DNA of 45,834 nt from Desulfobacterales bacterium (GCA_050122795.1 JASFIG010000001.1:1-45834); one strand, 5' to 3'. Positions 1 through 15,128 are shown, counted from the stretch's first letter. Notes: generated by a model from the sequence alone, not told the origin. Translations and numbers: made by a program.

Positions 1-1
1 T

Positions 2-1078
2 CCCAGGCCCTTTCCGCTGCAACAGGTGTGGGCTTCCACCCTGGGGATCGGGTTTGCCCTTTTTATTTTCACCACCATGCAGGCTATGGGGGGCTGGGTA
101 TTATCTCTGTCACCCGGCGCTAATGGGGGGACCATATTGCCGCTTCAAAGCCTTATCGACAGCGGGGGTAATGCTCTGGTGCCCTTGCTGATTCATCTAA
201 TGAAAGACACGGCGCCCTTTGCCGTGGGCATTCTGGCGATCTGTGCGCTGGCGGCCATGCAGTCCACCGGTGCGGCCTATATGTCGACCGCCTCTGGTAT
301 GCTGACGCGCGACATCGTCAAGCGGCATATTGTCAAGGATATGACTGAAACCGGACAAACCCACTGGGGCCGTATCACAGTGCTGATCGTTGTCGGGTCG
401 GCCCTGATCTTCGCCACCCTGGTGCCCGGCGCCATCGTTATGCTGGGCGCCTTTGCGACCTCTTACGGGTTTATGATGTACCCGTCCCTGATTGCGGTCT
501 GTTACTGGAAATTCCTGACCCGTCAGGGAGTGGTCACCGGTCTGATCTGCGGTATGATCGCGGTGTTCTTAACCTTCAGGTTCGATCTGGGACTTCCCTG
601 GGGCTACAATCCGCTGACGATTTTTGCCGCCGGCTGGGGCATCCTGTTCAACCTGCCGGTTGCCATCCTTATCAGCCTGTTCACACAGCCCACGGGTGAG
701 CTGGATGCCAAACAGAAGGAATGGCACGCATTTATTAAAGAACACGCATCTTTACCGCCGGAAAAGCGTGGGCTGATCAAATGGGGCTGGATTGCAGCTT
801 TGGTCTGGTTCTTTTTTGCCATCGGCCCGGGCGCTGTGATCGGTAACACCATCTTTGGTGATCCCGCAGCGCCTGCTTCATGGGCAAATGGAATGCCGTC
901 GATCTGGATCTGGCAGATTATTTTCTGGGTGCTGGGTATCGGCATGATGTGGTTCCTGGCCTACAAGCTGGAGATGTCGACCAACATCACCACCGACTTT
1001 GAGGTCTTGAAACACGATATTTACGAAGAGGAGCCGGCCGTTGCCGAGTCGACCTCGCGGGGACAGTCAGGCGTTTAA
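2..1078 (+). CDS. Sodium:solute symporter (SSS/SLC5) family transporter, C-terminal ~358 aa; the 5' end lies outside the window
   Basis: The frame is open from the window edge, with no stop before the GTG at 26. It has many hydrophobic helices and an SSS-like segment (AICALAAMQSTGAAYMSTASGMLTRDIV). It ends at TAA 1076-1078 and is followed by a strong hairpin terminator. Confidence 0.75.
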   Translation, partial: PRPFPLQQVWASTLGIGFALFIFTTMQAMGGWVLSLSPGANGGTILPLQSLIDSGGNALVPLLIHLMKDTAPFAVGILAICALAAMQSTGAAYMSTASGMLTRDIVKRHIVKDMTETGQTHWGRITVLIVVGSALIFATLVPGAIVMLGAFATSYGFMMYPSLIAVCYWKFLTRQGVVTGLICGMIAVFLTFRFDLGLPWGYNPLTIFAAGWGILFNLPVAILISLFTQPTGELDAKQKEWHAFIKEHASLPPEKRGLIKWGWIAALVWFFFAIGPGAVIGNTIFGDPAAPASWANGMPSIWIWQIIFWVLGIGMMWFLAYKLEMSTNITTDFEVLKHDIYEEEPAVAESTSRGQSGV

Positions 1079-1116
1079 CATTTACCGTTTTAGCCCTGAT
1101 GTTTCCGATAATAAAA

Positions 1117-1154
1117 GGATGAGGAGGCGCTTGCGCCTCCTCATCCAACCTTTT
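1117..1154 (+). terminator. Rho-independent terminator after the SSS transporter gene
   Basis: Perfect 14-nt inverted repeat GGATGAGGAGGCGC-TT-GCGCCTCCTCATCC (1117-1146), followed by CCTTTTCG. Confidence 0.7.
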
Positions 1155-1182
1155 CGTTAAAGGGAAATCAGTTATTGAATAG

Positions 1183-1680
1183 ATGAAACGATTATTTTTG
1201 ATACTGACGATATCTTTTTTCACAGCTGCCGGCTGCGGTCTCGGGACGCCAGAGTTCAAAGATGCCGTTTTAGACGGTGCTTCCAATCTGAACAGGGGCA
1301 GAACGGAAAAAGCCCTGGAAGATTTCAACCGGGCCATTGGCATTGATCCTACACATCAAGATGGCTACATGGGCCGGGCTGACACCCTCAACACCATGGG
1401 GCGCTATGAAGAAGCTCTCATGGATTACAATAGAGCCATTGAAATCAAACCAACCCTGGCCCACGCTTATGTCAATCGGGCGATCGCCTACAGCCATCTG
1501 GGGCAATATGAAAAGGCAATTGCCGATTATGAGAAAGGGCTGGAGCTGGATCCGGAGATCGATGACCCGCCCGGTTTTATAACGCGACTTTTCAGCAACG
1601 AGCCGAATACCGACAAGGGTATCCGCCGCCATCTTGAATTTTTGAAACAAAAAGTGCAATCGTCTGATCGTAGCTCATGA
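1183..1680 (+). CDS. TPR-repeat lipoprotein
   Basis: N-terminal signal peptide with a lipobox-like FTAAGC. About three 34-aa TPR units (e.g. ALEDFNRAIGIDPTHQDGY, EEALMDYNRAIEIKPTLAHAY, EKAIADYEKGLELDPE). Confidence 0.8.
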   Translation: MKRLFLILTISFFTAAGCGLGTPEFKDAVLDGASNLNRGRTEKALEDFNRAIGIDPTHQDGYMGRADTLNTMGRYEEALMDYNRAIEIKPTLAHAYVNRAIAYSHLGQYEKAIADYEKGLELDPEIDDPPGFITRLFSNEPNTDKGIRRHLEFLKQKVQSSDRSS

Positions 1681-1688
1681 TCCAGAAA

Positions 1689-1793
1689 ACAGAAACCAGA
1701 TAACAGAGGACAGAGGACAGAATGCTGAAACAGATGACAGATGATAAAACCGAGAGTGGATACCGCCATCTGTCCTCTGTCCTCTATTATCTG
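1689..1793. repeat. Purine-rich ACAGA/CAGAGG tandem tract forming a 24/25-bp long-range inverted repeat
   Basis: The left arm CAGATAACAGAGGACAGAGGACAGA (1697-1721) pairs with TCTGTCCTCTGTCCTCTATTATCTG (1769-1793) with one mismatch and a 47-nt loop. ACAGA recurs about 7 times between 1689 and 1742. Confidence 0.8.
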
Positions 1794-1893
1794 TAACCAA
1801 AGAGGCCAAGCGTTTTACGTCTTACGAACCGGAAAAATTAGAAATCACAACCACATAGACACCTGAACACGATTCGTCCAAAGGAGGCAAATC

Positions 1894-3801
1894 ATGGCAA
1901 ACCCTTATGACATTGCCCATAAGCAATCCATCGAAGACCCGAACGGTTTCTGGGGGACGGCAGCCGAAGACTGCCACTGGTATAAAAAGTGGGATAAGGT
2001 TCTGGATGACAGCAACAAACCGTTTTATCGCTGGTTTAGCGGCGGGGAAACGAACACGTGCTACAATGCGGTGGATTATCATATCGAAAGCGGCCGCGGT
2101 GAGCAAGATGCGATAATTTATGACTCCCCGGTTACCGATACCATCAAGAAATACACCTATAACCAGCTGCGGGATGAGGTGGCTCGGTTTGCCGGCGCGC
2201 TGGCCGCCCAGGGTGTAGCCAAGGGGGATCGGGTCCTGATTTACATGCCGATGATTCCTGAGGCCTTGATTGCCATGCTGGCCAGCGCCCGTATCGGCGC
2301 GGTGCATTCTGTGGTCTTTGGCGGGTTTGCGGCCAAAGAGCTGGCGGTGCGCATCAATGATGCCAAGCCCAAGGTGATTGTGTCCGCTTCCTGCGGTATC
2401 GAAGTCAAACGGGTTATCGCCTACAAACCGCTGCTTGACAAGGCCATTGACATGGCCGAAGCCAAACCGGATTATTGCATTATCAAACAGCGGCCCATGG
2501 AAACCGCCGCGATGATCGACGGGCGGGATCTGGACTGGGATGAAGTCACGGCCAAAGCCCAGCCGCATGAGTGTGTGCCGGTGGCGGCCACCGACCCGCT
2601 GTACATCCTGTATACCTCCGGAACCACCGGCGTGCCCAAGGGCGTGGTACGGGACAACGGCGGGCATATGGTGGCCTTGAAATGGACCATGGGCGCCATT
2701 TACAATGTGGACGCCGGTGACGTTTATTGGGCAGCATCGGATGTGGGCTGGGTTGTGGGTCACTCCTACATTGTTTATGGGCCATTATTGAAGGGGTGCA
2801 CCACGATTGTATTCGAAGGTAAACCGGTAGGAACGCCGGATGCCGGCGTTTTCTGGCGCGTGATTTCCGAGCATAACGTCAAAGTCATGTTTACGGCACC
2901 GACGGCATTTCGCGCCATCAAGCGCGAAGATCCTCAAGCGGAGCTGATGAAAAATTATGATCTGTCTAATTTTAAGGCGCTTTTTCTGGCCGGAGAACGC
3001 ACGGATCCGGATACCCTTAAATGGGCTGAAAACAGCCTGAACGTTCCGGTCATCGACCACTGGTGGCAGACGGAAACCGGCTGGGCCATCGCCGGCAATT
3101 GTCTGGGGCTGCATCATTTTCCGGTCAAGGAAGGCTCGCCCACCAAGGCGGCGCCGGGCTGGAATCTGCAGGTGGTCGACGAAAACACCCAACCGGTTGC
3201 CTCCGGGGAAATCGGCGCCCTGGTGGCCAAACTGCCGTTGCCGCCGGGCACACTTCCCACCCTGTGGAACAATGACGAGGGCTTTTTGGCGGCCTACATG
3301 GAAGAGTTTCCCGGATATTATAAAACCGCGGATGCCGGCTATATTGATGATGAAGGCTATGTTTTTGTGATGAGCCGCACCGATGACATTATCAACGTTG
3401 CCGGTCACCGGTTATCCACCGGAGCCATGGAGGAAGTTCTGGCGGATCACCCGGACGTGGCCGAATGCGCGGTTTTAGGCGTCGAAGACAAACTCAAGGG
3501 TCAGGTGCCCGTCGGTTTTTTGGTGCTGAATGCCGGTGTCGAAAGGGATTCGGCCGACATTGTCTCGGAAGTCATCCAAATGGTTCGCGATCGCATTGGG
3601 CCGGTGGCTTCTTTTAAAACCGCCACGGTGGTCAAGCGTCTGCCGAAAACGCGCTCCGGTAAAATTTTACGCGGCACCATTCAGAAAATCGCCGACAATA
3701 CGCCTTACAATGTTCCGGCGACCATCGATGATCCTACTATTCTGGACGAAATGGAGCAAGCGCTCACCGGCATCGGTTACGCCAAAGCCAGAAAAGAATA
3801 A
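1894..3801 (+). CDS. prpE: Propionate-CoA ligase / short-chain acyl-CoA synthetase (AMP-forming)
   Basis: 635 aa with an AGGAGG RBS 6 nt upstream. Family motifs present: YTSGTTGVPKG (AMP-binding), IGAVHSVVFGGFAAKELAVRINDAKPKVIVSAS, DVGWVVGHSYIVYGPLL, GRTDDIINVAGHRL and LPKTRSGKILR. The overall pattern resembles PrpE/ACSS3 more than Acs. Confidence 0.85.
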   Translation: MANPYDIAHKQSIEDPNGFWGTAAEDCHWYKKWDKVLDDSNKPFYRWFSGGETNTCYNAVDYHIESGRGEQDAIIYDSPVTDTIKKYTYNQLRDEVARFAGALAAQGVAKGDRVLIYMPMIPEALIAMLASARIGAVHSVVFGGFAAKELAVRINDAKPKVIVSASCGIEVKRVIAYKPLLDKAIDMAEAKPDYCIIKQRPMETAAMIDGRDLDWDEVTAKAQPHECVPVAATDPLYILYTSGTTGVPKGVVRDNGGHMVALKWTMGAIYNVDAGDVYWAASDVGWVVGHSYIVYGPLLKGCTTIVFEGKPVGTPDAGVFWRVISEHNVKVMFTAPTAFRAIKREDPQAELMKNYDLSNFKALFLAGERTDPDTLKWAENSLNVPVIDHWWQTETGWAIAGNCLGLHHFPVKEGSPTKAAPGWNLQVVDENTQPVASGEIGALVAKLPLPPGTLPTLWNNDEGFLAAYMEEFPGYYKTADAGYIDDEGYVFVMSRTDDIINVAGHRLSTGAMEEVLADHPDVAECAVLGVEDKLKGQVPVGFLVLNAGVERDSADIVSEVIQMVRDRIGPVASFKTATVVKRLPKTRSGKILRGTIQKIADNTPYNVPATIDDPTILDEMEQALTGIGYAKARKE

Positions 3802-3813
3802 AGTGGTATCGCT

Positions 3814-4203
3814 ATGCCCAAAGAAATACTCATCGTTGATGATGAGCCCAGCATTGTCGTTCCCATCCAATTTTTGATGGAGCAGCAGGGCTATAATGTC
3901 ATTGTTGCCAAGAACGGCGAGGATGCGCTTGACATTATCCTAAAATACAAGCCCGATCTCATCCTGCTGGATATTATGCTTCCCGGAATTGATGGGTATG
4001 AGGTCTGTGAAATCGTGCGTTTGAATCCTGATTTTAGAAATGTAAAGATCATCTTTCTGACAGCCAAGGGCCGCGAGGTCGAAATTGCCAAGGGCATGGC
4101 ACTCGGGGCGGACGCCTATATCATCAAACCGTTTTCGAATGCAGAAGTTGTGGCCAAGGTCAAAGAACTGCTTGAAAATACGCATGAAGAAACGGGGACT
4201 TAA
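3814..4203 (+). CDS. Single-domain response regulator (CheY-like REC)
   Basis: 129 aa. REC signature present: ILIVDDE, DLILLDIMLPGIDG (phospho-acceptor Asp), IFLTAKG, YIIKPF. No output domain. Confidence 0.85.
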   Translation: MPKEILIVDDEPSIVVPIQFLMEQQGYNVIVAKNGEDALDIILKYKPDLILLDIMLPGIDGYEVCEIVRLNPDFRNVKIIFLTAKGREVEIAKGMALGADAYIIKPFSNAEVVAKVKELLENTHEETGT

Positions 4204-6343
4204 ATTTTGGCAGGCAATTGCGCTATCTTGTGCAGCTTGGCTGATCATATGCATTGGTTTCGCCGTCTGGTTTAAAACCCAACTATCTGCTGAAGCGCTC
4301 AGCTTTCTTGTGGGCATCATAAAGGTTCATTTCGGACCGCTTCTTATCCTGACCGTGCTTTTGCTGCTGTCCAGCGCTCTGTTTCTGGACCTTATGTTGC
4401 GCAAATACATCCGGCCGTTGCGTAAAATTAGCGAGCAAGTTTCATTGGTGAATCCCACCAATCCATCCCACCGCTTTGAGATTACCGGTGCCGCCGAGAT
4501 TCAACAGCTTTGCGATCGTTTAAACGAAGGGGCGGCGCATTACGAATCCCTGTTGAATGATATCCAGGGCCGCGTTAATACGGCCAGGGCCCAATCGGAG
4601 GAAGAAAAAAACATCCTGGCGGCGATCATGTCGGAGTTGCCTGAAGGGGTGATTGTGTGCAATCCCGACGGCCAGATACTGCTGTACAATAACCGTGCAA
4701 AACACATGGTTTCGGGAGAGGGCGATAGCAGCCATGAAACATCCATACGGTTTATCGGCCTGGGGCGTTCGGTTTTCGAAGTTTTTGACGAAAACCTGAT
4801 GCGGCACACCATTGATCAGATCACTGAAAAATTAAAAAAGAACGAACCGAATGTGGTTTACCATTTCGTCTCTCCGGGGGCCGAAAATACCTTGCTTCGG
4901 ATCGAGGCAGTGCCGGTCCTGGACTACCGCAAGCACTACACCGGTTTAATTCTGATTCTAACCGATATTACCCAGCAGCTCGAATCTCAAAATTTTTTAA
5001 ATCTCACATTACAGTCTTTTACCCGCGGCATTCGGGCTTCCTTTGCCGGTATCCGCTCGGCCATTGAAACCATCCTGGATTTCCCGGATATGGATGTCAA
5101 TCGCCTCGAAACACTCAAGCAGATTATTCACAAAGAGTCGCTGAACATCGGCAGCATTTTAGAGCGCGACCCAACGCTGTCATCGCAACCCATGTACAAT
5201 CAGTGGCCGCTGACACGGATTGCGGTGCGCGACCTGTTTGAGATGCTGCAGGCCCGCTGTCGCCAAAATCCAAAGCTCCGGATTTTAACAGAGAATCTGT
5301 CCGCCGAGCATACGGTCAGTGTCGACCATTCTTCCTTTCTGCTGGCTTTGCTGTACATTATCCACCAGATCCAGACCGCCACCGGCGTGACTGAAATGTC
5401 ATGTCGTTTGAGCGAGTTGAGGCGTTTTGTCGGCCTGGATTTGCTCTGGTCGGGTCAGCCGATAAAGGCCGATGTCATGAAGGACTGGGAAACCCGGCCG
5501 CTAACGTTTGAAAAAGAAGGTCTTTCGTTAACCCTCAGACAAGTGATTGATCATCACAACGGTGAAATCGGTATATACGCATCCAAACGCCTGAAGAATA
5601 TGTTTTATGTGCGCTTTTTTCTGCCGGTTCCTTACCTGATGCGGCCCGAAAAAGCCCGGTCGTTAACGATCATACCGGAAAGCCGCCCTGAGTTTTACGA
5701 TTTTGATATGTTTTTGCAGGTGGAGGAGCAACCGGAGCTGCAGAACCGCAATTTATCAAAGCTGACCTACACGGTGTTCGATCTGGAAACCACCGGTTTG
5801 AACCCCACCGAGGGCGATGAGATCATCTCTGTTGGGGCTGTTCGCATCGTCAATGGTCGTTTACTGCAAAATGAGCGCTTCGAACAACTGGTGGACCCCC
5901 GGCGCTCGGTGCCCTGGACTTCGGTGCGGATACACGGCATTCACCCGGAGATGTTGGAGGGCATGCCGACCATCGATGAAGTGCTGCCGATGTTTCATGA
6001 TTTTGCAAAAGACACCATTCTGCTGGCTCACAACGCGGCCTTTGATATGCGTTTTTTGCAGTTAAAGGAGGCGCAAACCGGAGTGCGCTTTGTAAATCCG
6101 GTGCTGGATACATTATTGCTGTCGGCCGTCGTCCATCCGTCGCATGAAGACCATAATCTGGAAGCGATTGCCAAGCGGCTGGGAGTTCAGATTCTGGCGC
6201 GTCATACCGCCATGGGCGATGCCGTGTCGACCGGTGAAATGTTTCTCAAATTTTTGCCACTGCTGTCTCAGCAAAAAATTTTTACGCTCAAGCAGGCTCT
6301 GGAAGCTTCGCAAAAGACGTTCTATGCCCGTCAGAAATTCTAA
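4184..6343 (+). CDS. Membrane sensor (2 TM, HAMP-like, PAS-like, degenerate HisKA/HATPase-like core) fused to a C-terminal DnaQ/epsilon-type DEDDh 3'-5' exonuclease
   Basis: Start chosen at ATG 4184 (MKKRGLKFWQ...), which overlaps the REC gene stop by 20 nt. Hydrophobic helices at the N-terminus. PAS-like EEKNILAAIMSELPEGVIVCNPDGQILLYNNRA. H-box-like FTRGIRASFAGIRSAIE with no His. HATPase-like tail HHNGEIGIYASKRLKNMFYVRFFLP without G-boxes. Exonuclease motifs are intact: VFDLETTGL (ExoI), LLAHNAAFDMRFL (ExoII), HTAMGDAVSTGEMF (ExoIII, H-x4-D). Confidence 0.75.
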   Translation: MKKRGLKFWQAIALSCAAWLIICIGFAVWFKTQLSAEALSFLVGIIKVHFGPLLILTVLLLLSSALFLDLMLRKYIRPLRKISEQVSLVNPTNPSHRFEITGAAEIQQLCDRLNEGAAHYESLLNDIQGRVNTARAQSEEEKNILAAIMSELPEGVIVCNPDGQILLYNNRAKHMVSGEGDSSHETSIRFIGLGRSVFEVFDENLMRHTIDQITEKLKKNEPNVVYHFVSPGAENTLLRIEAVPVLDYRKHYTGLILILTDITQQLESQNFLNLTLQSFTRGIRASFAGIRSAIETILDFPDMDVNRLETLKQIIHKESLNIGSILERDPTLSSQPMYNQWPLTRIAVRDLFEMLQARCRQNPKLRILTENLSAEHTVSVDHSSFLLALLYIIHQIQTATGVTEMSCRLSELRRFVGLDLLWSGQPIKADVMKDWETRPLTFEKEGLSLTLRQVIDHHNGEIGIYASKRLKNMFYVRFFLPVPYLMRPEKARSLTIIPESRPEFYDFDMFLQVEEQPELQNRNLSKLTYTVFDLETTGLNPTEGDEIISVGAVRIVNGRLLQNERFEQLVDPRRSVPWTSVRIHGIHPEMLEGMPTIDEVLPMFHDFAKDTILLAHNAAFDMRFLQLKEAQTGVRFVNPVLDTLLLSAVVHPSHEDHNLEAIAKRLGVQILARHTAMGDAVSTGEMFLKFLPLLSQQKIFTLKQALEASQKTFYARQKF

Positions 6344-6344
6344 A

Positions 6345-6484
6345 GGTTCAGAGGTTCAGGGTTCAAAGGGTCAGAGGTTGATTGCAGAAGATAAATATCG
6401 GATATCAGAGGACCGAAGTCGTAAACCTTTGAACCTCTGAACCCGGAACCCTGAACGGTTTGCCTGATACTATAGGGATCAGGC
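6345..6484. repeat. Degenerate GGTTCAGR 8-mer tandem repeats with an inverted complement, plus a terminal 7-bp hairpin, between convergent genes
   Basis: Left: GGTTCAGAGGTTCAGGGTTCAAAGGGTCAGAGGTT (6345-6379). Right: CCTTTGAACCTCTGAACCCGGAACCCTGAAC (6426-6456). Several alternative perfect 10-14-bp registers exist, e.g. 6345-6358 with 6430-6443. A further hairpin GCCTGAT-N9-ATCAGGC (6462-6484) lies directly downstream of the kinase stop codon. Confidence 0.75.
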
Positions 6485-6485
6485 A

Positions 6486-9263
6486 TTAAGAAGTGGGGGC
6501 GGTCTCGCGGGAGGTGGGCAACGTGAACGAAAAAGTGGATCCTTCGCCGGGCTTGCTTTCGACCCATATGCGTCCGTGGTGGAAATCAATAATGCGCTTG
6601 CTGATGGTCAGGCCAATGCCCGTTCCATAAGGCCGGCCCCGGGCGGGATCTTTTATCTGGTGGAATTTTTCAAATATCTTGTCCTGGTCGCGGCTGCGAA
6701 TGCCAATACCGTTGTCCTGGACATCGACCTGTACCTGCTGTTCGCTGGCTGTCAATCGAATGGTTATTTTACCGCGATCGGAGTCGCAAAATTTGACGGC
6801 ATTTGAGATCAGGTTCACCATGACCTGTACCAGCCGGTCACGATCGCCGGAAATGAGAGGGGGGTTGTCGGTCAATTCATAATCGATGGTGATCTTTTTA
6901 TCTTCAACCAGTTGACGGGTGCTGGCAACCGCGTCCTGAATGACCACTTTGATATCGGTTGCAATGATGACCCAGTCCATCTGGGCGGATTCGATTTTTT
7001 CATAATCCAGCACCTGGTTGATCAGTCGGGTCAACCGCTCGCTTTCTTTAATGATGATACCGGTAAAGTTTTTGTGCTGGTCTGCGCCGATTTCCGGATT
7101 GGTGTGCAGGATTTCAGCCAGGGAGCGGACCGACGTCAGCGGGGTGCGCAACTCGTGCGTAACAGTTGAGATAAATTCGTCTTTAAGGCGGTCCAGATCC
7201 TTGAGGCGGCGGTTGGCTTCCTGAAGCTCGGCGGTGGCCTTCTCAAGTTCCCGGCTGTAGGCAATCACCTGCCGGGTCTCATCGAGGATGTTCAAGACTT
7301 CCTCGATACCCAGTGATTCTTCCTTGACCACTGAGGCGACCATGACCCGGGCGGATGCCGAGCCAATAGCGCCGGCCAGCAATCTTTCAGCGTAGCCGAC
7401 CAGATTGGCATCGGCGGTTACCAGGTAGTTCCAGCTGAGTTTGCGTTTATTGGCGTAGTCGGCCAGCGCCTCATCGGTGCGCTGTCGGCCCAGAAAGCGT
7501 ATCAACAGGGATTTAAGGTCCGGCAGGTGGGCCGTTCCGCGCCAGAAGTGGGATCCAGCAGCTTCACCGGAATATCTGAATACGTCAACGAACAAAGCAG
7601 CCTGGGTATGCTCGATGGTGCGCGGGCGGCTGAATAAAGATACACCGACATACGCAGCGGTGTTCGCCAGCAGACTCCAGAAAACTGCATGGGAAATTTG
7701 ATTGAAGCCCTGCAAGCCAAATAATTCAAACGGCTTGAGCAGCTCAATTCCCAGCGGTCCCTGTTTGACGAAATTTTCAGCGATGATGCCGGCCGGCACC
7801 AGGGAGGGCAGGAAAAGAGTGTAAATCCACACGGCGAATCCGGCCAGCAGGCCGCAGACAGCGCCGCTGCGGGTGCCACCTTTCCAGAAGATGCCGCCCA
7901 GCAGAGCCGGTGCAAACTGGGCAACCGCGACGAAGGAGACCAGTCCCATGGAGACGAGGGCATAGAATTCGCCGATGGTGCGAAAATAGGCGTAACCCAG
8001 CAGCAGAACTAAAACGATGCTGCATCTACGAATGGTCAGCAGCAGCCCGCTGTAGTCCTGTCGCAGGCCCATCTCTTCGATGGGCAGCCGCAGCAGGACC
8101 GGCATGACCAGATCGTTACAGATCATGGTGCTTAACGCAATGGTTTCGACGATGACCATGCCGGTTGCAGCCGACATGCCGCCAAGATAAACGAATAAAG
8201 CGATGAGCTGTTGGCGTTCGGCCATCGGCAGTGTGAGCACAAATGTGTCGGCATCGACACCCCCGTGCGGAAAATGCAATATGCCGCTTAATGCCACCGG
8301 TACGACAAAGACATTAATGGCCAGAAGATACAGCGGGAATAGCCAGATCGCTTTGTTGAGGTGCTCCTCGTTGACGTTTTCGACAACGGTGATCTGAAAT
8401 TGACGCGGTAAAAATATAATCGCCAGCATCGATATCAACAGATGAATGCTCCAGTCCGCGTAACTGAATCCCTGGCCTTTTATCGTCAGGTGTTTATCGA
8501 AAATCAAGGAGCTGAGGCCACCGGATTGCCCCCCAAGGCTATTCTTCGCATCGGTAAATTGGGTGGCTTTTTGAAAAAGGTCTCCCAATCCGTTATGGAT
8601 AAAATAGGTGACAAATATCCCGACGGTCAAAAAGGCGGCCAGCTTGACAATCGATTCAAAAGCGATGGCGGCCACCAGTCCCTCATGTCGCTCGGTTGCG
8701 TCCAGGTGACGGGTGCCGAACAGAATGGCAAATACGGCCAGCAGCAGGGCAATATAAAAGGCCGGGTCGTACATAATCGGAACGTCGGAAAAACTGAATG
8801 AAACTGATACTTCGGGGTATTGGGTGATCAGCAAAAAACCGGTTGAAATCGCTTTAAGCTGCAGTGCAATATAAGGGATGACACCGATAACCGCAATGTT
8901 TGTGGCAAGCCCACCGAGGGTGGTGCTTTTACCGTAGCGGGAGGCAATAAAATCGGCAATGGAGGTAATGCGGTGAACCTTGCTGATACGGATAATTTTC
9001 TGCCAGACGGACCAGCCCAGCAGCGCCATCAGCGTCGGCCCGATGTAAATGGTTAAAAAGCCCAGTCCGCTGCTGACAGCCAGTCCGACGCTGCCGTAAA
9101 AAGTCCAGGCCGTGCAATAAACGGCCATGGAAAGTGCGTAGATGTAGGGGTTGCTGATAATGCTGCGCCCGGCATCAGCGCGTTTGTCACCATAATGGGC
9201 GATGGCGAAAAGCAACCCCATGTAGGCAAATGACACAAAAAGTATGGCCCCGGTTTCCAGCAT
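6486..9263 (-). CDS. Sensor histidine kinase with an N-terminal sodium:solute-symporter (SLC5-like) domain (CbrA/CrbS-type architecture, no receiver domain)
   Basis: 925 aa. The first ~560 aa are polytopic and SSS-like. They are followed by a coiled coil, the H-box FISTVTHELRTPLTSV and HATPase motifs (NLISNAVKF, DNGIGI, GTGIGLTISKRII). Confidence 0.85.
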   Translation of the reverse strand: MLETGAILFVSFAYMGLLFAIAHYGDKRADAGRSIISNPYIYALSMAVYCTAWTFYGSVGLAVSSGLGFLTIYIGPTLMALLGWSVWQKIIRISKVHRITSIADFIASRYGKSTTLGGLATNIAVIGVIPYIALQLKAISTGFLLITQYPEVSVSFSFSDVPIMYDPAFYIALLLAVFAILFGTRHLDATERHEGLVAAIAFESIVKLAAFLTVGIFVTYFIHNGLGDLFQKATQFTDAKNSLGGQSGGLSSLIFDKHLTIKGQGFSYADWSIHLLISMLAIIFLPRQFQITVVENVNEEHLNKAIWLFPLYLLAINVFVVPVALSGILHFPHGGVDADTFVLTLPMAERQQLIALFVYLGGMSAATGMVIVETIALSTMICNDLVMPVLLRLPIEEMGLRQDYSGLLLTIRRCSIVLVLLLGYAYFRTIGEFYALVSMGLVSFVAVAQFAPALLGGIFWKGGTRSGAVCGLLAGFAVWIYTLFLPSLVPAGIIAENFVKQGPLGIELLKPFELFGLQGFNQISHAVFWSLLANTAAYVGVSLFSRPRTIEHTQAALFVDVFRYSGEAAGSHFWRGTAHLPDLKSLLIRFLGRQRTDEALADYANKRKLSWNYLVTADANLVGYAERLLAGAIGSASARVMVASVVKEESLGIEEVLNILDETRQVIAYSRELEKATAELQEANRRLKDLDRLKDEFISTVTHELRTPLTSVRSLAEILHTNPEIGADQHKNFTGIIIKESERLTRLINQVLDYEKIESAQMDWVIIATDIKVVIQDAVASTRQLVEDKKITIDYELTDNPPLISGDRDRLVQVMVNLISNAVKFCDSDRGKITIRLTASEQQVQVDVQDNGIGIRSRDQDKIFEKFHQIKDPARGRPYGTGIGLTISKRIIDFHHGRIWVESKPGEGSTFSFTLPTSRETAPTS

Positions 9264-9266
9264 TGG

Positions 9267-9500
9267 TTATGGCTCGGTTTGTTCAAAGGGTGTTGATGGG
9301 GGTTGCCCGCGGGTTTTTGTCGCCATGGCTGCCAGCAGAATTAAGAAAACCCAGGCGGTAAAGATATACCATATGAGCAGGGGCAAGCCGAAGATACTGG
9401 TTTTGAGGTTGAACAATGACAACAGTGGGTAATTGAAAAGAACGCTACCCAACAGAAATAAACCGACCAAGCGTTTATTTTTTCTGGCTTTGGGTGTCAC
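9267..9500 (-). CDS. Small 2-TM membrane protein immediately upstream of the SSS-kinase (putative symporter small-subunit-like partner)
   Basis: 77 aa with a GTG start preceded by AAGGTG. Two hydrophobic helices (LVGLFLLGSVLFNYPLLSLF and LPLLIWYIFTAWVFLILLAAMA). Its stop is 3 nt before the kinase ATG. Confidence 0.55.
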   Translation of the reverse strand: MTPKARKNKRLVGLFLLGSVLFNYPLLSLFNLKTSIFGLPLLIWYIFTAWVFLILLAAMATKTRGQPPSTPFEQTEP

Positions 9501-9512
9501 TGGTCACCTTTT

Positions 9513-9557
9513 GCATGCCCGTTAAGCTGGAAAAGGGCGAATCATTTAACGGCATGC
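9513..9557. promoter_or_regulatory. Inverted repeat GCATGCCCGTTAA-N20-TTAACGGCATGC in the divergent intergenic region
   Basis: 12 of 13 positions are complementary. It lies between the minus-strand small-ORF/kinase operon and the plus-strand DUF294 gene. It is a candidate operator or 5'-UTR hairpin. Confidence 0.3.
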
Positions 9558-9741
9558 TACTATAAATTAATTGGATTGCAGTGTCAAATGCGTCCTGAGT
9601 TATCGGTACGCGACGTTCAGTAAATGTTATTCGAATTGGCACATGACGCCAGGTATGCTACGGTAGGATCGATCGTTGCAGATGCCCGATGCTATGCTTT
9701 ACGAGGCCCTCGAACGCCTGCCGCCAAGAACAGGAGACAGT

Positions 9742-12072
9742 ATGTCAGACCCCATCCTTACCTTTTTATCAAAGCTGGTTCCGTTTTCAAAGCTGCCGGC
9801 GGAAGAATGCAAGCGAATCGCTGAATCGGCAACCACTGAAAACTACGCCGGCGGACACAATTTGTCCGTGCAGGGACGAACGAAACTGGAGTGCATTTAT
9901 CTTGTAAAAGAAGGTATTTTAGAGCTTTTTTATGAATCCGACGGTGAAAAAGAAATGACCGGCATCATCAAAAAAGGTGAAATTTTCGGGGGCATTTCGA
10001 TCCTGATGAATGCCGGCATATCCGTTCGTTCGGTCAAAGTCGTTGAAGATGTCAGCTTATACGTGGTGCCCAAAAAGGTCTTCCTGGAAGTTGCGACCCA
10101 GTACACTGATTTTTACGAATTTTTTGCCGAGAAGTTCCGCAAGCGAATGCTGAACAAATCCTACGCATCGGTGGTCGCCGCCGGTCAGGCACTCCATTTC
10201 TTGCATGAGCTGGTACCGTTTTCGTTTCTTCCCCAAACGGATCTGGAAAAAATGGCAGCGGCGATTTCTATTATCAACTATCCCAAAGATACCATTCTGT
10301 TTGCCCAGGGGCGCTCCAAAATCGATTATCTGTACATCGTCCAAAAAGGGGCGGCCGAGCGCTACTTTGAAGAGAATGATGAAAAAAACCTGCGTGGCAT
10401 ACTGGGCGAGGGGGATATGTATGGTGGTATTTCCATGCTGGTCAACGATGGCATCGCCATAAGGACGCTGAGGGTGATTGAGGATTCCTATTTCTACATT
10501 TTGCCCAAGGAGCTGTTTTTGGAAGCCTGCCAGAAACACGGCGCCTTTTCAGACTTTTTCACCGATACCTTCGGCAAGCGGATGCTCGATCGGTCCTATG
10601 CCGAAATCATCGCCCATAACCGCAGGCCACGCGAGCAGGTCACTGATTTTTTTAATCGGCCGGTTGAAAGCATCTACAACAAAGATCTGGTTTACTGCGA
10701 TCAGAACATGCCGATCCAGGCAGCCGCTGCGGTGATGAGCGAGCACAACACAAGCTCTATTTTTGTGCGTGAGCACAGAGGTCAATTTGTCGGTGTGGTG
10801 ACCGACAATGACCTCAGAAAAAAGGTGACCGCCACCGGATATGATATCCTGAAGCCGGTTTCCGACATCATGTCATCACCGTTAAGCATGATTTCCGAAA
10901 AAGCGCTTCTTTTCGAGGCCCTGATGGAAATGATGCGAGAAAATATCAAGCACCTGGCGGTCACCAACAGCGATGATAAAGTCGTTGGTGTTATCACCAA
11001 TCGCGATTTGCTCAGAGCCCAGGGGCAGTCGCCATTGTTTATCATCCGCGAGATTATCCAGGCCAAGTTTATCAACCAGATTGTTCAGGTGCGGCAACAG
11101 GTGCCACGGTTAATTGAAACACTGATCAATACCGGCACCAAGGCTCACAATGTAACCGGTCTTTTGACGACGATTTCAGATACCACCCTGGAAAAAATCA
11201 TCGGATTCGCGCTGGACGAATTCGGCCCGCCCCCGGTCAGATTTGTTTTTATGATCCTGGGCAGCGAGGGCCGCAGAGAACAAACGTTAAAGACCGATCA
11301 GGACAATGCCATTATTTTTGAAGATGTGCCTTCCGAATCTCTTAAGAAAGTGACCCAATATTTTCTAAAATTCAGCGAGCGGGTCTGCAACTGGCTGGAT
11401 GAAGCCGGTTACGCCCTGTGCAAGGGCGGGATTATGGCCAAGAATGCCAACTGGTGCCAGCCATTGTCCACCTGGAAAAGCTATTTCAGACGCTGGATTC
11501 ATACGGCCGAGCCCGAAGCGTTGCTGCAGGCCAGTATTTTCTTCGATTTTCGATCCGGATACGGCGATGAGGAATTGATCACCGATCTGCGTCGATACCT
11601 GTTTAAGGAATTGAGCGGCTGGCCGGGATTTTTTCGCCATATGGCTGAAAATGCGATGTATTTCACCCCTCCGATCGGCTTTTTCCGCAATTTTGTGGTG
11701 GAGTCCGAAGGCGAGCACCGGGATGCCTTTGACATCAAGGCCGCCATGCAGCCAATTGTCGACTATGCCAGAATCTATGCTCTCAATCATCAAATCGACG
11801 AGACCAATACGCATGCACGCCTGAATCAACTGCTGGCCCTCAAAAAGATCAGCCCCGAGGAGCATATTGAACTGGAGACAGCCTACAGCTACATGATGCA
11901 ACAACGGTTGGCGCGCCAGGTTGAAGCCATGGTCGAAGAAAACGTAGCGCCGAATAATTATATCAACCCCAAAAAATTGTCACGTATCGAACAAACCATG
12001 CTCAAGGAAATCTTCAAGCGCGTCGAAAAATTCCAGGGCAAACTCAGTTTTGATTTTACCGGGCTGACCTAA
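9742..12072 (+). CDS. Signal-transduction protein: 2x cyclic-nucleotide-binding domain, CBS pair, DUF294 (GlnD-like) nucleotidyltransferase and DUF294_C
   Basis: Start chosen at ATG 9742, with an AGGAGA RBS at 9733-9738. Two cNMP-like repeats (LVPFSKLP...GEIFGGISILMN and LVPFSFLP...GDMYGGISMLVN). Two CBS motifs (...VGVVTDNDLRKKV and ...VGVITNRDLLRAQ). NTase motif ILGSEGRREQTLKTDQDNAIIF. Confidence 0.85.
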   Translation: MSDPILTFLSKLVPFSKLPAEECKRIAESATTENYAGGHNLSVQGRTKLECIYLVKEGILELFYESDGEKEMTGIIKKGEIFGGISILMNAGISVRSVKVVEDVSLYVVPKKVFLEVATQYTDFYEFFAEKFRKRMLNKSYASVVAAGQALHFLHELVPFSFLPQTDLEKMAAAISIINYPKDTILFAQGRSKIDYLYIVQKGAAERYFEENDEKNLRGILGEGDMYGGISMLVNDGIAIRTLRVIEDSYFYILPKELFLEACQKHGAFSDFFTDTFGKRMLDRSYAEIIAHNRRPREQVTDFFNRPVESIYNKDLVYCDQNMPIQAAAAVMSEHNTSSIFVREHRGQFVGVVTDNDLRKKVTATGYDILKPVSDIMSSPLSMISEKALLFEALMEMMRENIKHLAVTNSDDKVVGVITNRDLLRAQGQSPLFIIREIIQAKFINQIVQVRQQVPRLIETLINTGTKAHNVTGLLTTISDTTLEKIIGFALDEFGPPPVRFVFMILGSEGRREQTLKTDQDNAIIFEDVPSESLKKVTQYFLKFSERVCNWLDEAGYALCKGGIMAKNANWCQPLSTWKSYFRRWIHTAEPEALLQASIFFDFRSGYGDEELITDLRRYLFKELSGWPGFFRHMAENAMYFTPPIGFFRNFVVESEGEHRDAFDIKAAMQPIVDYARIYALNHQIDETNTHARLNQLLALKKISPEEHIELETAYSYMMQQRLARQVEAMVEENVAPNNYINPKKLSRIEQTMLKEIFKRVEKFQGKLSFDFTGLT

Positions 12073-12137: not shown

Positions 12138-15128
12138 TTATCTGCCCTTTATCCACACCGCAACCAGCACCCCCATCAGCAAAACAAGGACCACGAACAG
12201 ATACCATTCTTCGAAGGGATGCCGGGTTTCAGGTTCGAAAAGTTTATCTGCCAGACGAAACGGAATGGCTGTGTTCTTGATGCTCAGATTGAGATTGAGC
12301 GCTTGCGGTTCCACGTCATGCGGAACAGATAAGATATGCGTATAGGTTCCGTCAAGTCGATCCTGCAAGCTGCCCATCCACCTCCCTTCGGACGCCTCCA
12401 ATTTCATGGAGCCGGCATGACCGGGGCCCAAAAAGTTACCCAGAGCATCTTTGGGCGTGACGCGAATTTCATAGGCCTTAACATCTTGCTCAATGGCGGG
12501 TTGGCGAGCGGCTTCGACTGCAGTAGAAGCCGGATCGACATTGATGGTTACATATTTTTCGATGACCTTTTCGCGCTTGAACAGAATGCCGTCGCCGGTG
12601 GTTCCGGAAGTCTGAACATAAAACACATAGGTTCCCTGCTGGCGGGTATCGCTGAAACGAGCCGTATAGACGCCATCATTGGCTTTAGCATCGCCGTGGG
12701 ACTGATCATCAACCATTTGCACAGGTTCGGGGCGGGTGCGTTGCGGCAACGGAATTTGACTGTTTTTCGTCAGGTAGATCGCCTTGCGGTGGAGCGCGGA
12801 CAGGTCTTCCTGACCCTGCTTTTGCGGCACCTGCTTCAGCGCACTCAGGGGGATCGGATGTTTGGCAAACCAGTTGCCCAGACCCTCCTGTGGGCGGGTG
12901 ACCTGGATGCCAATGTCCTGCAGCCCCCTGACGGGTTGATTGCCTTCACTTAGCGAGGCACTCACAACAATGGCATCGCCGGTTTGATAAGCCTTGCGGT
13001 CAAATTTAATGTTCATTTTCAAATCCGAGCGGGTAATGACACTGTACTGGTATTTTTCGTTTTTGGCTTCAGCTGAATCGGCCAGCGAGACCTTGATTTG
13101 CCAGGGGACGGGTCCGACTTTGCCGGGTTGATTGAGAAATAGACTTTCGAAGGCAATGATCCGGAATGTATCACCGCTCGTCGTCTGAACGCCTGCGACC
13201 GGGTCTGTGAGCGTTATTTCCTGCCCGTCGGAGGAGGTGACCGTCAGCAACAGTCTGTCGCGCTGAAAAGCAACCCAGCTTAAATAGACGATGACTTTTT
13301 TGTCGGACTTGCTGATATAAAAATCATGAACCTGGGTTTCACCGCTGTTAATGACAGCCATCGGATCTGCTGCAGATTCCAGCTGCAATGTGTCGACCAA
13401 TACGGCCTTGTACCTTTCCTGCAGGGCATTGCCGGGGTCCCAGGTCCCGGGGTTGAAATTGGGGTCAGCAGTCACATCGTAAAAGCCGCCCCAAGTCCCG
13501 GTTCCAATATTATTGAGCAGATCGTGCGGAACTTCGGCCGGTTGGCCAAATCCGATCGCATGCACGTTGATAGCGGCCGCATTCAGGTTGTCAACGAGCT
13601 GGTCAATCTGCGCAGCTTCCACACCCGCTATCGCGGGGCAATTTTGAAAACCGTCGCTTAAAAGAACCAGGGCCTTGCGGCTGGCATTGCCGAAAAGACC
13701 TGATGCGGTATCGATACCGGCCAGCAACGGAGTGCTGCCGCCGGGCGTCAGGCCTGGAATGGTGGTATCAATGGCCGTAGCGATGGTGCTTTCCTGCACG
13801 AGGGCAAGATCGGAAATAATCTGGCCCTCACAGGCCTGCTGCGGCTGGCGCGGAAAAGCGGCGATGGCGAAGTTTGCGCCGCAGGGATTGAAATAATTCA
13901 GCATCCACACAAACGGGATCGCCGCCTGTTTGGCCAGGGTGATCCGCCTGGCCGGCTCGGCAACATTGACGGACCCATCATGTCCCCAGTTCATGCTGCC
14001 GGATCGGTCAAACAGCAAAACCACCGACGCATCCAGCGGCTGTGCTGCCGGTGCCGGAATAATGGGAGGGTTGCTGCCCGTCACTCCGACAATAACATCG
14101 TCAGGCGGAACCTGCTGATAGACGGCCGTGTAAAGGGCGGTGAAAATTGTCTGCGGCCAGTGGACGGTGTTCTGGTGAACAGATACAGGACCGTTGCCGG
14201 GTACTTCTAGATAATCGATATTGACGGCGTTGTCCGCCAGATTCTTTGCTAGAACTCTTCCCTGGCAATCATCGGAGGGCGTGCTGCCGCCCACAAAATC
14301 CCCGTTGTCGCCGGCATATAGCGTGACATACAGAACGCCGTCCTGAGGCGGCGATCCCGGTGGCCGGCTGCCGGGTGCCTCGCTCGCATAATCGATGGAG
14401 GGATCGAAGTTGGCGGCACGGGTGTCCTGAATGTCGTGGCCATTGAGGTCTGCGATGAAATCTTCAGCGTCCGCACCCAAAGACCAACAAGTCACTCCAC
14501 CGTAGCCATTGTTGAGCTGTCTGGCGGCCAGGCTGGCACTGGGCAATACGGGCATGTTTAATCCATGATTGGGCGGCGCGATGGCAATAAACGCCGAAAC
14601 CGGGATATCGCTATTGTTGTCATGAAGATTTTTTATATACGTGCGTGAGCTGAGTGTGCCCTTGCTGTAGGCGATGATCACCACTTTCAGATCCGGGTTG
14701 TTCGGGTCCTGCGGCTGATGGCGTGCCAGAATGCTATCAATGGCGTCCCCAATATCCGCGGCATCCAGCGCAATGGAGCGCCCCTGGTCCTCAAAGTAAA
14801 TGAAGTAGGGCTCGATGCCCAGGCAGGCGTTTTGTGGTAACGCCAGGGTCTGTTTGAAAGAGGGCAGGTTGCCCAGCGAATGCCACCAGTTTTTCTGATA
14901 ATTCGGATTGCTCGGGTCCGGGTTGGGATCATGGCCATGGACGAATAAAACCGGGATTTTGCGTGCGGGTGGCGCGGAGTTTTCAGTCAATTGGCTGCCA
15001 TCGTTCAGAAAAACCGTGGCTGCGGCTACTTGCGGGGCTAAGTTCGGCAGCGTGGCAGCCAGAAACAACATCACTGCAACCCCGCTACAAACGATAAAGA
15101 ATCGGCTGTGATTTCGTTTTTTTACCAT
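12138..15128 (-). CDS. Large secreted, C-terminally membrane-anchored protein: alpha/beta-hydrolase (lipase-like), vWA domain and beta-rich Ig-like region
   Basis: Start chosen at ATG 15128 (MVKKRNHS..., GGAG RBS). Signal peptide ends ...PQVAAA. VLFVHGH plus the nucleophile elbow A-Y-S-K-G (an AxSxG lipase-type motif). vWA MIDAS residues VVLLFDRSGSMNW, GGSTPL and LVLLSDGFQN. Terminal TM helix WYLFVVLVLLMGVLVAVWIKGR. Confidence 0.75.
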   Translation of the reverse strand: MVKKRNHSRFFIVCSGVAVMLFLAATLPNLAPQVAAATVFLNDGSQLTENSAPPARKIPVLFVHGHDPNPDPSNPNYQKNWWHSLGNLPSFKQTLALPQNACLGIEPYFIYFEDQGRSIALDAADIGDAIDSILARHQPQDPNNPDLKVVIIAYSKGTLSSRTYIKNLHDNNSDIPVSAFIAIAPPNHGLNMPVLPSASLAARQLNNGYGGVTCWSLGADAEDFIADLNGHDIQDTRAANFDPSIDYASEAPGSRPPGSPPQDGVLYVTLYAGDNGDFVGGSTPSDDCQGRVLAKNLADNAVNIDYLEVPGNGPVSVHQNTVHWPQTIFTALYTAVYQQVPPDDVIVGVTGSNPPIIPAPAAQPLDASVVLLFDRSGSMNWGHDGSVNVAEPARRITLAKQAAIPFVWMLNYFNPCGANFAIAAFPRQPQQACEGQIISDLALVQESTIATAIDTTIPGLTPGGSTPLLAGIDTASGLFGNASRKALVLLSDGFQNCPAIAGVEAAQIDQLVDNLNAAAINVHAIGFGQPAEVPHDLLNNIGTGTWGGFYDVTADPNFNPGTWDPGNALQERYKAVLVDTLQLESAADPMAVINSGETQVHDFYISKSDKKVIVYLSWVAFQRDRLLLTVTSSDGQEITLTDPVAGVQTTSGDTFRIIAFESLFLNQPGKVGPVPWQIKVSLADSAEAKNEKYQYSVITRSDLKMNIKFDRKAYQTGDAIVVSASLSEGNQPVRGLQDIGIQVTRPQEGLGNWFAKHPIPLSALKQVPQKQGQEDLSALHRKAIYLTKNSQIPLPQRTRPEPVQMVDDQSHGDAKANDGVYTARFSDTRQQGTYVFYVQTSGTTGDGILFKREKVIEKYVTINVDPASTAVEAARQPAIEQDVKAYEIRVTPKDALGNFLGPGHAGSMKLEASEGRWMGSLQDRLDGTYTHILSVPHDVEPQALNLNLSIKNTAIPFRLADKLFEPETRHPFEEWYLFVVLVLLMGVLVAVWIKGR

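Follow-up and report, generated by a model that had tools for sequence, protein, structure and literature searches.

The CrbS/CrbR system (also MxtR/ErdR), built around an SLC5/STAC-type sensor kinase, has been described in Pseudomonas fluorescens, P. putida and P. aeruginosa, where its targets include acs, actP/yjcH and scpC (PMC5715377; PMC8402216; PMC9927547) as well as prpE and the methylcitrate genes (bioRxiv 10.64898/2026.09.07.749794). It also controls an operon for a cNMP-CBS-nucleotidyltransferase and an RNase_T exonuclease (Pflu5625; PP_0354/PP_0353) (PMC5715377; PMC8402216; PMC9927547). This operon, whose PP_0354 promoter ErdR binds, ranks with the strongest direct MxtR/ErdR targets, and the authors state that the function of PP_0354/PP_0353 is unknown (PMC9927547; PMC8402216; PMC5715377; bioRxiv 10.64898/2026.09.07.749794). 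The corresponding P. aeruginosa genes, PA3232-PA3235, are up ~16-fold on propionate (PMC9765439). Here we analyze a 45,834-nt stretch of DNA from a Desulfobacterales bacterium (GCA_050122795.1 JASFIG010000001.1:1-45834), referred to below as the window, whose first 12,072 nt hold a module in which the Pseudomonas CrbS/R regulon is gathered in one locus. A first-pass annotation of the window had called this module unexplained, which does not wholly hold; it had also said that the biochemical role of the nucleotidyltransferase/exonuclease pair is not established, and on this the Pseudomonas authors concur.

The association of DUF294 nucleotidyltransferases and exonucleases with carboxylate genes is thus already known. 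What sets the window locus apart from a CrbS/R-type module is that it is consolidated, has no transcription factor, and encodes an exonuclease fused to a pseudo-kinase together with a dedicated receiver. We tentatively read it as a self-contained carboxylate-sensing system of the CrbS/CbrA type with an enzymatic rather than a transcriptional output, a reading to which, taken as a whole, we give somewhat less than an even chance.

Comparison with CrbS/R and CbrA/CbrX

The window module shares with CrbS/R of Vibrio and Pseudomonas the link between an SLC5/STAC-type kinase and a set made up of acs, prpE, the gene of an actP-type SSS permease and the cNMP-CBS-DUF294 plus RNase_T operon. However, CrbS is a hybrid kinase, with a PAS domain and a C-terminal receiver, that acts via the LuxR-type regulator CrbR, whereas the window kinase gives no PAS or receiver match in Pfam and ends at its CA domain, and no DNA-binding or helix-turn-helix regulator was found in the module (window, L004, L005). 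In the module, the sole receiver is a domain on its own whose gene is coupled to that of the exonuclease, whereas the receiver of CrbS lies within the kinase. The CrbS/R targets are scattered on the chromosome, whereas the window genes all lie within one 12-kb locus. Finally, the Pseudomonas exonuclease has been described only with an RNase_T match and no secretion signal (PMC9927547), whereas that of the window carries a pseudo-kinase.

The second close relative is CbrA/CbrX of P. putida, for which a cryo-EM structure of the CbrX-CbrA SLC5-STAC fragment is available (PDB 10ED; PMC13488458). Residues 7-488 of the window kinase match CbrA chain A of this entry in a PDB sequence search (E=3e-66; 1.4e-71 with a profile). 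The N-terminus gives no SSF match in Pfam, even at E<10, and none in NCBIfam; despite this silence, the SSS domain that had been assigned to the kinase holds because of the 10ED match. Both systems have a 13-helix SLC5 domain, a small gene for a peptide with two transmembrane helices at the kinase start, and no receiver, and the window kinase keeps the Lys that aligns with CbrA K196. The ~145 aa between transmembrane helix 13 and the DHp domain is the right size for a STAC domain; aa 530-690 gave no PDB sequence match and no Pfam match. The kinase core is intact (HisKA 2.7e-17 and HATPase_c 2.7e-30 in Pfam), with H703, N817/N821, DNGIGI and GTGIGL of the H, N and G boxes all invariant. CbrA differs in having a PAS domain, an NtrC-type partner (CbrB), a role in catabolite control and histidine as ligand, whereas the context of the window kinase is short-chain carboxylates.

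In 10ED, CbrX forms a two-helix hairpin packed against the CbrA SLC5 domain (PMC13488458). The window peptide is equivalent to it by position and topology: its open reading frame (ORF) encodes two hydrophobic helices and stops 3 nt ahead of the kinase ATG. ORFs of 76-80 aa stand at the same position in L005, L006 and L016.

A pseudo-kinase fused to a DEDDh exonuclease

The exonuclease fusion has more than 100 homologues, and because these are all 719-731 aa long its start is fixed at 4184, which corrects the 4085 given earlier. In order, the protein has two transmembrane helices (~aa 8-31 and 52-72), a linker, a PAS domain, DHp-like helices (aa 270-327), a CA-like domain (aa 340-483) and the exonuclease. 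Only ~20 residues separate the two transmembrane helices, so that no periplasmic sensor domain is present.

Aligned to the locus kinase with hhalign, residues 275-491 of the fusion fall on the DHp and CA domains (E 8.4e-5, probability 60%). In this alignment, TRGIRASFAGIRSAIE of the fusion lies opposite THELRTPLTSVRSLAE of the kinase, which places Arg281 at the position of the phospho-acceptor His. Arg281 is invariant at the H-box site, and none of the 22 ORFs aligning there (20 of them fused to the exonuclease, two to DUF294) has a His at that site; they represent 21 different loci, with L001 and L002 being one place. In the hhalign alignment, the CA-like domain likewise lacks the N-box Asn and both Gly boxes, G1 and G2. 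Having lost the His together with the N, G1 and G2 motifs, the fusion is a pseudo-kinase. The surface of DHp helix 1 is nonetheless almost invariant in an 18-sequence alignment, which, given the lost His, points to a conserved interaction surface. An AlphaFold model of the fusion (mean pLDDT 56; PAS 70-83; PAS-DHp-CA 70-85) leads to the same family by Foldseek, in which each of the top 50 matches (E 2e-19 to 1e-8) is a sensor kinase or resembles one; WalK, VicK, YF1, ThkA, HK853, EnvZ, KinB and DivL (4q20) are among them, at E 2e-19 to 1e-9.

DivL of Caulobacter offers the closest functional parallel, as a kinase scaffold that lacks the phospho-acceptor His and is the proposed reader of the state of a single-domain receiver, DivK. 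The residue at that site is Tyr in DivL, which regulates the kinase CckA, whereas the window protein has Arg, its output would be the fused exonuclease, and the interaction is suggested by gene linkage. This linkage is strict. The window receiver keeps DD, D53, T and K (motifs VDDEP, LLDIMLPG, FLTAKG and IIKPF, read in translation), and orthologues 47-98% identical to it lie directly upstream of the exonuclease in 20/20 loci whose fusion has the DHp-like helix, ending within a few bases of the exonuclease start. The receiver is adjacent in 0/11 Desulfobacula-type sensor-exonucleases, which have a divergent middle region and no DHp-like helix; among these, only L059 has a receiver orthologue at all, ~4.5 kb off, beside an SLC5 kinase. 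In L035, L045 and L059, a receiver orthologue (59-61% identity) directly follows the SLC5 kinase in the same orientation. From this linkage we infer, as the simplest reading, that the kinase phosphorylates the receiver and that the receiver docks on the pseudo-kinase. The exonuclease had been credited at first with a membrane sensor of its own; what it carries is a pseudo-kinase scaffold with a short loop rather than a ligand sensor, and its most probable input is the phosphorylation state of the adjacent receiver.

Single-domain receivers often serve as phosphate sinks, and the receiver might be just such a sink or connector for the SLC5 kinase, with the pseudo-kinase exonuclease regulated independently of phosphorylation through its PAS domain or through membrane contacts. 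The presence of the PAS domain would suit this alternative, and the two transmembrane helices with their very short loop may resemble intramembrane-sensing kinases that read a partner transporter. However, a sink would not explain why the receiver goes strictly with the DHp-like helix and overlaps the exonuclease gene translationally, nor why the helix 1 surface is kept once the His is lost, and we consider it improbable.

The regulatory part of the fusion is also found elsewhere. In L035 (2566-4806) and L045 (8744-11020), a His-less PAS-DHp-CA unit with a weak HisKA match is fused to DUF294; these proteins have no cNMP or CBS domains and no exonuclease, and they are encoded beside an operon for an SLC5 kinase and a receiver. 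Since the unit occurs either on the exonuclease or on DUF294, it appears to be a portable regulator for either enzyme.

The exonuclease domain itself retains all of its DEDDh catalytic residues (D533, E535, D621, H674 and D679), and the motifs D-x-E (FDLETTG), H-N-x3-D (HNAAFDMRF) and H-x4-D (HTAMGDA) are invariant in 18 homologues and in 30 loci. It scores 112.8 bits against the TIGR00573 dnaq-family model (cut-off 71.5).

A LemA-family gene of ~200 aa stands between the sensor-exonuclease and DUF294 in L033, L038, L054, L057 and L058, which are of the Desulfobacula/Desulfotignum type (e.g. L054 8476-9099). The exonucleases of these loci have neither the DHp-like helix nor an upstream receiver.

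The DUF294 nucleotidyltransferase

The DUF294 gene starts at 9742, preceded by GGAG, which gives 776 aa as in its homologues. The protein matches PF03445 (5e-49) and PF10335 (2e-45). Its GS...DQD motif is intact, as had been read from the sequence at the outset, and GS...DxD is invariant family-wide; in 22 diverse members, GSEGRREQTLKTDQDN, FFDFR and the third Asp are invariant, too.

An AF2 model of the nucleotidyltransferase and C-terminal domains (pLDDT 93.9) gives only four PDB chains below E 1e-3 in Foldseek, all of them DrrA or GlnE. These are the DrrA AMPylation domain bound to Rab8a (E 5.5e-9, TM-score 0.65), the N-terminal half of GlnE (1v4a) and two chains of its C-terminal half (3k7d), with TM-scores of 0.66-0.69 across the GlnE matches, and both proteins align across the whole 335 aa of the model. 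Aminoglycoside nucleotidyltransferases come next, at a TM-score of ~0.3, and RNA uridylyl-transferases are at noise level (E>0.2, TM-score <0.2). A PDB sequence search with the protein and a profile returned only CBS and cNMP relatives, with noise for the nucleotidyltransferase. This GlnE/DrrA-type fold points to a protein as acceptor.

The Legionella pair DrrA/SidD and GlnE thus share with DUF294 the nucleotidyltransferase and helical substrate-binding fold, the G-S...D-x-D motif and, possibly, a writer/eraser logic. DrrA AMPylation is reversed by SidD, a metal-dependent enzyme of phosphatase fold. In GlnE, in contrast, one fold is present twice, once as writer and once as eraser, and the modification is removed by phosphorolysis, whereas DUF294 is a single copy whose partners are of the hydrolytic DEDDh, PHP or calcineurin-like type. 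An earlier grouping by sequence had placed DUF294_C with GlnD, GlnE and DrrA (PMC3710099), in agreement with the fold match.

The cNMP-like domains are non-canonical. The usual phosphate-binding cassette G-E...R-[ST]-A is absent from both PF00027 stretches, which read [FY]GG[IV]S[IM]L[ML]N....R[ST]; Gly replaces the ribose-contacting Glu and the Arg is kept, and this holds family-wide (DUF294 ORFs L004-L085). The Glu-to-Gly change makes gating by cyclic nucleotides uncertain, and the ligand of the cNMP-like domains may not be a cyclic nucleotide. The Pat model gives a weak match (E 6e-5) to one cNMP domain of the window protein.

DUF294 proteins are numerous, with 4,181 relatives retrieved from 1.84 billion cluster representatives, and varied at their N-termini. 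Some carry CBS only and others one cNMP domain plus CBS (~635 aa); the window type, with two cNMP domains plus CBS (~777 aa), is common in Desulfobacterota. There are also sCache-PAS-CBS forms (~850-1000 aa) and PHP-sCache-PAS-CBS forms (~1070-1230 aa).

Partners of DUF294 across phyla

The first-pass annotation had called for a count of DUF294 neighborhoods across genomes and had stated that DUF294/exonuclease pairs recur by acs/actP-type genes in Proteobacteria. A 22-sequence DUF294 profile was run against GTDB, with a single genome for each species, and the 80 best of at least 598 loci were used; neighboring ORFs were called crudely and labeled by phmmer/jackhmmer, with representatives checked in Pfam. 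The 80 loci span Desulfobacterota, SAR324, Bacteroidota, Calditrichota, Gemmatimonadota, Verrucomicrobiota, Lentisphaerota, Riflebacteria, Acidobacteriota, Actinomycetota, Cyanobacteria and others. A phosphoesterase is fused to DUF294 or lies at most three genes away in 41/78 loci (27/48 of those with at least 3 kb on both sides). Within 10 kb of DUF294, an SSS transporter is found in 44/78 loci (34/48), often paired with a small subunit of the DUF485 (YjcH-like) or DUF4212 type, and an Acs/PrpE-type synthetase in 20/78 (14/48); an SLC5 kinase is nearby in 8/78 (4/48). Together with the Pseudomonas operons, these counts bear that statement out and extend the linkage to many phyla.

The 41 phosphoesterase partners belong to three folds: 29 are DEDDh, nine are calcineurin-like and three are N-terminal PHP fusions. 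The DEDDh partners include short ones of ~233 aa upstream of DUF294 in Bacteroidota (the one checked, in L071, matches RNase_T at 1.2e-12). The calcineurin-like partners, of ~250 aa and with a weak match to YfcE-type phosphodiesterases, lie immediately 3' of DUF294, most of them overlapping its stop by 4 nt (Metallophos in L048, the one checked). The PHP count comprises three proteins of more than 1,050 aa with phmmer PHP matches, one of which, in L061, was checked and confirmed by Pfam; a jackhmmer PHP query strayed into the transmembrane/sCache region and over-called PHP, and its extra calls are not counted. In all, the pairing of nucleotidyltransferase and phosphoesterase is conserved in at least 10 phyla. 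That three unrelated metal-dependent folds replace one another beside DUF294, sometimes fused to it or translationally coupled, makes the two look like a writer/eraser pair. The earlier suggestion of a writer/eraser pair gated by cNMP therefore stands as to the pair, for which the exclusive match to DrrA and GlnE and the three partner folds speak, and is doubtful as to the gating, given the altered cassettes.

A role of the partner enzymes as cNMP phosphodiesterases was considered and rejected: the calcineurin-like partners go with sCache-type DUF294 proteins, which have no cNMP domain. In seven Desulfobacterota loci, a ~365-aa radical-SAM protein (spore-photoproduct lyase-like) is encoded directly 3' of DUF294, for example at L009 7419-8519, L013 11075-12193, L015 11015-12112, L016 10975-12075 and L078 8096-9193; it is not present in the window.

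Pol-beta nucleotidyltransferases include CCA-adding and poly(A) enzymes, and the pair could instead edit the 3' ends of RNA (or DNA), with DUF294 tailing a specific RNA (a tRNA, an sRNA or the operon mRNA) and the DEDDh enzyme trimming it, for post-transcriptional control of carboxylate genes. The exonuclease is a bona fide DEDDh enzyme of the DnaQ/epsilon family with all motifs in place, and the fused PHP variant is nearest RNase RNM, both of which suit such editing. It is harder to reconcile with the noise-level RNA uridylyl-transferases and the full-length DrrA and GlnE alignments of the fold search, or with the calcineurin-like proteins that stand in for the exonuclease in other phyla; moreover, the locus contains no RNA-binding domain and no Rfam element. 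We regard 3'-end editing as quite unlikely.

In a further alternative, to which we give a similarly low probability, DUF294 would make a linear or unusual nucleotide or modify a cofactor such as CoA or pAp, and the phosphoesterase would degrade the product. Each of the three partner folds does include enzymes that act on small nucleotides (the PHP pAp phosphatase, NF041577, E 8e-31; YfcE-type enzymes, by a weak match). Oligoribonuclease is a DEDDh enzyme, and the CBS and cNMP-like domains bind nucleotides. Against a small-nucleotide product stand the large GlnE/DrrA-type helical 'substrate-binding' domain, which is typical of protein-modifying enzymes, and the fold search, in which DUF294 has no similarity to cGAS/DncV-like synthases.

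That the genes have no functional coupling at all, with the neighbors brought together merely by shared regulation in the carboxylate response and the exonuclease being a paralogue from DNA repair or proofreading, would suit the mild knock-out phenotypes in Pseudomonas (PMC9927547) but is very unlikely in view of the stop/start overlaps, the PHP domain fused to the nucleotidyltransferase, the regulatory module swapped between both enzymes and the breadth of the pairing.

Gene order and features of the module

ORF listing with Pfam and NCBIfam scans recovered every gene named in the first-pass annotation and added a TPR lipoprotein (Table 1). The prpE-to-receiver gap of 12 nt and the 20-nt overlap of receiver and exonuclease indicate that prpE, receiver and exonuclease form one operon. 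The synthetase scores best as PrpE (NF007815, 749 bits; TIGR02316, 702 bits, cut-off 827; Acs model, 639 bits, cut-off 657) and so far the original prpE label was apt, but because the NF007815 score falls below the equivalog cut-off of 955 we call it PrpE-like.

Table 1. Features of the module, in window coordinates
Feature	Position (nt)	Strand	Evidence
SSS transporter, C-terminal 358 aa; cut by window start	2..1078	+	PF00474 1.8e-8; weak TIGR03648 (VC_2705 family)
TPR lipoprotein; signal peptide with AAGC lipobox	1183..1680	+	TPR_1 3.7e-28
PrpE-like short-chain acyl-CoA synthetase, 635 aa	1894..3801	+	ACAS_N, AMP-binding, AMP-binding_C
Single-domain receiver (REC), 129 aa	3814..4203	+	PF00072 2.4e-28
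Pseudo-histidine-kinase/DEDDh exonuclease fusion, 719 aa	4184..6343	+	Homologue lengths, Foldseek
PAS domain of exonuclease fusion, aa ~150-265	4631..4978	+	PAS_9 5e-6, PAS_4 2e-5
Degenerate kinase core of exonuclease fusion	4991..5632	+	hhalign vs locus kinase
DEDDh 3'-5' exonuclease domain	5756..6343	+	RNase_T 3.3e-35
SLC5/STAC-type sensor histidine kinase, 925 aa	6486..9263	-	PDB 10ED; HisKA, HATPase_c
Kinase core, aa 690-925	6489..7196		
SLC5 domain of kinase, ~aa 1-545	7629..9263		
CbrX-like two-transmembrane hairpin peptide, up to 77 aa; start codon uncertain	9267..9500	-	ORF sequence
Divergent control region	9501..9741	.	Promoter scan, five-locus alignment
DUF294 protein, 776 aa	9742..12072	+	Pfam
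cNMP-like domains of DUF294 protein	~9841..10101, ~10237..10545		
CBS pair of DUF294 protein	10660..11019		
DUF294 nucleotidyltransferase domain	11095..11517		
DUF294_C domain	11626..12057		

The names of homologues and a contig of 95% identity likewise place the organism in Desulfobacterales. To compare gene order, related contigs were taken for exonuclease homologues 55-78% identical to that of the window. The complete order, Acs-SSF-TPR-PrpE-like-REC-exonuclease-[kinase/peptide, other strand]-DUF294, occurs in L004 and L005 (exonuclease identity to the window protein, 57-78%), so that the association is conserved beyond the window genome. It is kept through the kinase and peptide in L006 and in part in L007, each of which then meets a contig edge, and through the exonuclease in L001 (Olavius Delta-1 symbiont), where unrelated genes follow; L003 has only a truncated synthetase, receiver and exonuclease. 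This arrangement is not due to chance. The SSS gene is full length in related loci (645-672 aa), with a 677-aa Acs upstream (L001, L004, L005), and because Acs heads the order there, a true Acs gene probably lies just left of the window start. The TPR lipoprotein between the SSS and PrpE-like genes recurs in L001, L004-L006, L009, L010 and L078.

Control regions and the rest of the window

A promoter scan and an alignment of the window with L004, L005, L007 and L008 show two conserved elements in the divergent control region. The first is a TTGACA-17-TATAGT promoter directed toward the peptide/kinase operon. The second, directed toward the DUF294 gene, is the block ATTTGAATTGGCAC(N~15)TGCTACGGTA, which resembles a sigma-54 site but does not fit one and might serve as the promoter of DUF294 or as a site for a regulator. 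Matches to sigma-54 promoters in the window are at chance expectation, and none lies in the intergenic regions of the module. A palindrome at 9513-9558 (GCATGCCCGTTAA...TTAACGGCATGC) was considered as an operator and rejected, as it is not conserved in L004, L005 or L008.

Three long, near-perfect inverted repeats lie in intergenic gaps of the module: one at 1697-1793 in the TPR/prpE gap, with 25-nt arms of 96% complementarity; one at 6345-6450 between the convergent exonuclease and kinase genes, with arms of 14-25 nt; and, behind the SSS gene, a perfect 14-bp hairpin at 1117-1146. These repeats may act as terminators or belong to the REP-like elements, and no Rfam family was found in the window.

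The flanks of the module vary among related loci, and 16-46 kb of the window lies outside it. Converging on DUF294 is a gene (12138-15200, minus strand) for a protein of 1,020 aa, secreted or anchored, whose N-terminus is lipase-like and which also has a VWA domain, an invasin-like Ig domain and a 'choice-of-anchor X' motif; this gene follows DUF294 in L007, too, and not in more distant loci. Farther on, 23571-32280 encodes a dCache-HAMP histidine kinase as well as a sigma-54 activator of the NtrC type; beyond these genes come two sites that closely resemble sigma-54 promoters: TGGCATGTTATATGCT at 27906, upstream of a universal stress protein, and TGGCACATTTTATGCT at 28683, upstream of a 1,187-aa pyruvate:ferredoxin oxidoreductase. 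This region may be a separate pyruvate/acyl-CoA regulatory unit.

A tentative model for the locus

If the locus is indeed a self-contained carboxylate-sensing system, the SLC5/STAC-type kinase and its bound CbrX-like peptide would report the availability or flux of short-chain carboxylates, upon which the kinase would autophosphorylate. The phosphate would then pass to the single-domain receiver of the prpE operon, which would dock on the membrane-anchored pseudo-kinase at its His-less DHp helices (compare DivK~P on DivL) and turn the fused DEDDh domain on or off. DUF294 would be the writer, of the GlnE/DrrA type, placing a nucleoside monophosphate (NMP) on a protein hydroxyl under the control of the CBS pair, which would sense adenine nucleotides, and of the two non-canonical cNMP-like domains. 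The DEDDh eraser would hydrolyze the protein-O-P-5'-NMP phosphodiester, by the same bond chemistry as in removal of a 3'-terminal nucleotide. Since this hydrolysis would free a 5'-NMP just as 3'-5' exonucleolysis does, a DEDDh eraser is chemically plausible. Judging by linkage, the likeliest targets would be the co-encoded acyl-CoA synthetases (PrpE-like, Acs) or the SSS permease, and the outcome would be carboxylate uptake and activation matched to the energy state. In its most specific form, the proposal is a phosphorelay that ends in protein nucleotidylylation, in which the receiver on the dead kinase gates a DEDDh de-AMPylase or de-UMPylase that opposes a DUF294 writer acting on the acyl-CoA synthetases or the SSS permease. 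In this detail it is rather unlikely to be right in every part.

Pat/Acs of mycobacteria and AcuABC of Bacillus provide precedents, in that acetyl-CoA synthetase is reversibly modified under a cNMP-binding or CBS-type sensor. However, the modification there is acetylation, whereas here it is presumed to be nucleotidylylation, and Acs/PrpE as the target is a guess from gene linkage.

Several points weigh against the model. To our knowledge, neither a DUF294 protein nor a partner of one has a measured activity, and we know of no DEDDh enzyme that takes a nucleotide off a protein; the nearest named relatives of the exonuclease domain are Pol III epsilon and the PolC proofreading exonucleases. The fused PHP domain is nearest the pAp phosphatase and RNase RNM, so that small-nucleotide or oligonucleotide substrates fit as well. 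DUF294 itself could be an eraser, because the N-terminal half of GlnE, which has the same fold, removes AMP. The pseudo-kinase assignment draws on a model of medium quality and on the hhalign probability given above. As for the survey, the 80 loci are the best matches to the window protein, with Desulfobacterota over-represented, and 37/78 have no adjacent phosphoesterase. SSS genes number a handful per genome, so that adjacency to DUF294 in more than 50% of loci is far above expectation, although the SSS count stands without a computed background frequency. Finally, there is no characterized DUF294 member (PMC8402216; bioRxiv 10.64898/2026.09.07.749794), and the Pseudomonas deletions have mild effects on pyruvate or propionate and no acetate defect (PMC9927547; bioRxiv 10.64898/2026.09.07.749794).

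Significance

The DUF294/exonuclease operon is among the most CrbS/R-dependent units in Pseudomonas, and genetics has failed for almost a decade to reveal what it does. Our analysis narrows the problem to testable points: a transferase that resembles AMPylators, partners of three phosphodiester-cleaving folds, and the wiring of one such partner to an SLC5-kinase phosphorelay. If the model is true, the locus would offer a compact, co-encoded set of proteins for reconstitution. It would give a first function to DUF294, a family of thousands, a first protein-directed role to a DnaQ-family exonuclease, and a non-transcriptional output to transceptor kinases. It would also reveal a new layer of post-translational control on acetate and propionate activation, with a bearing on anaerobic carbon cycling and on the use of short-chain fatty acids by pathogens.

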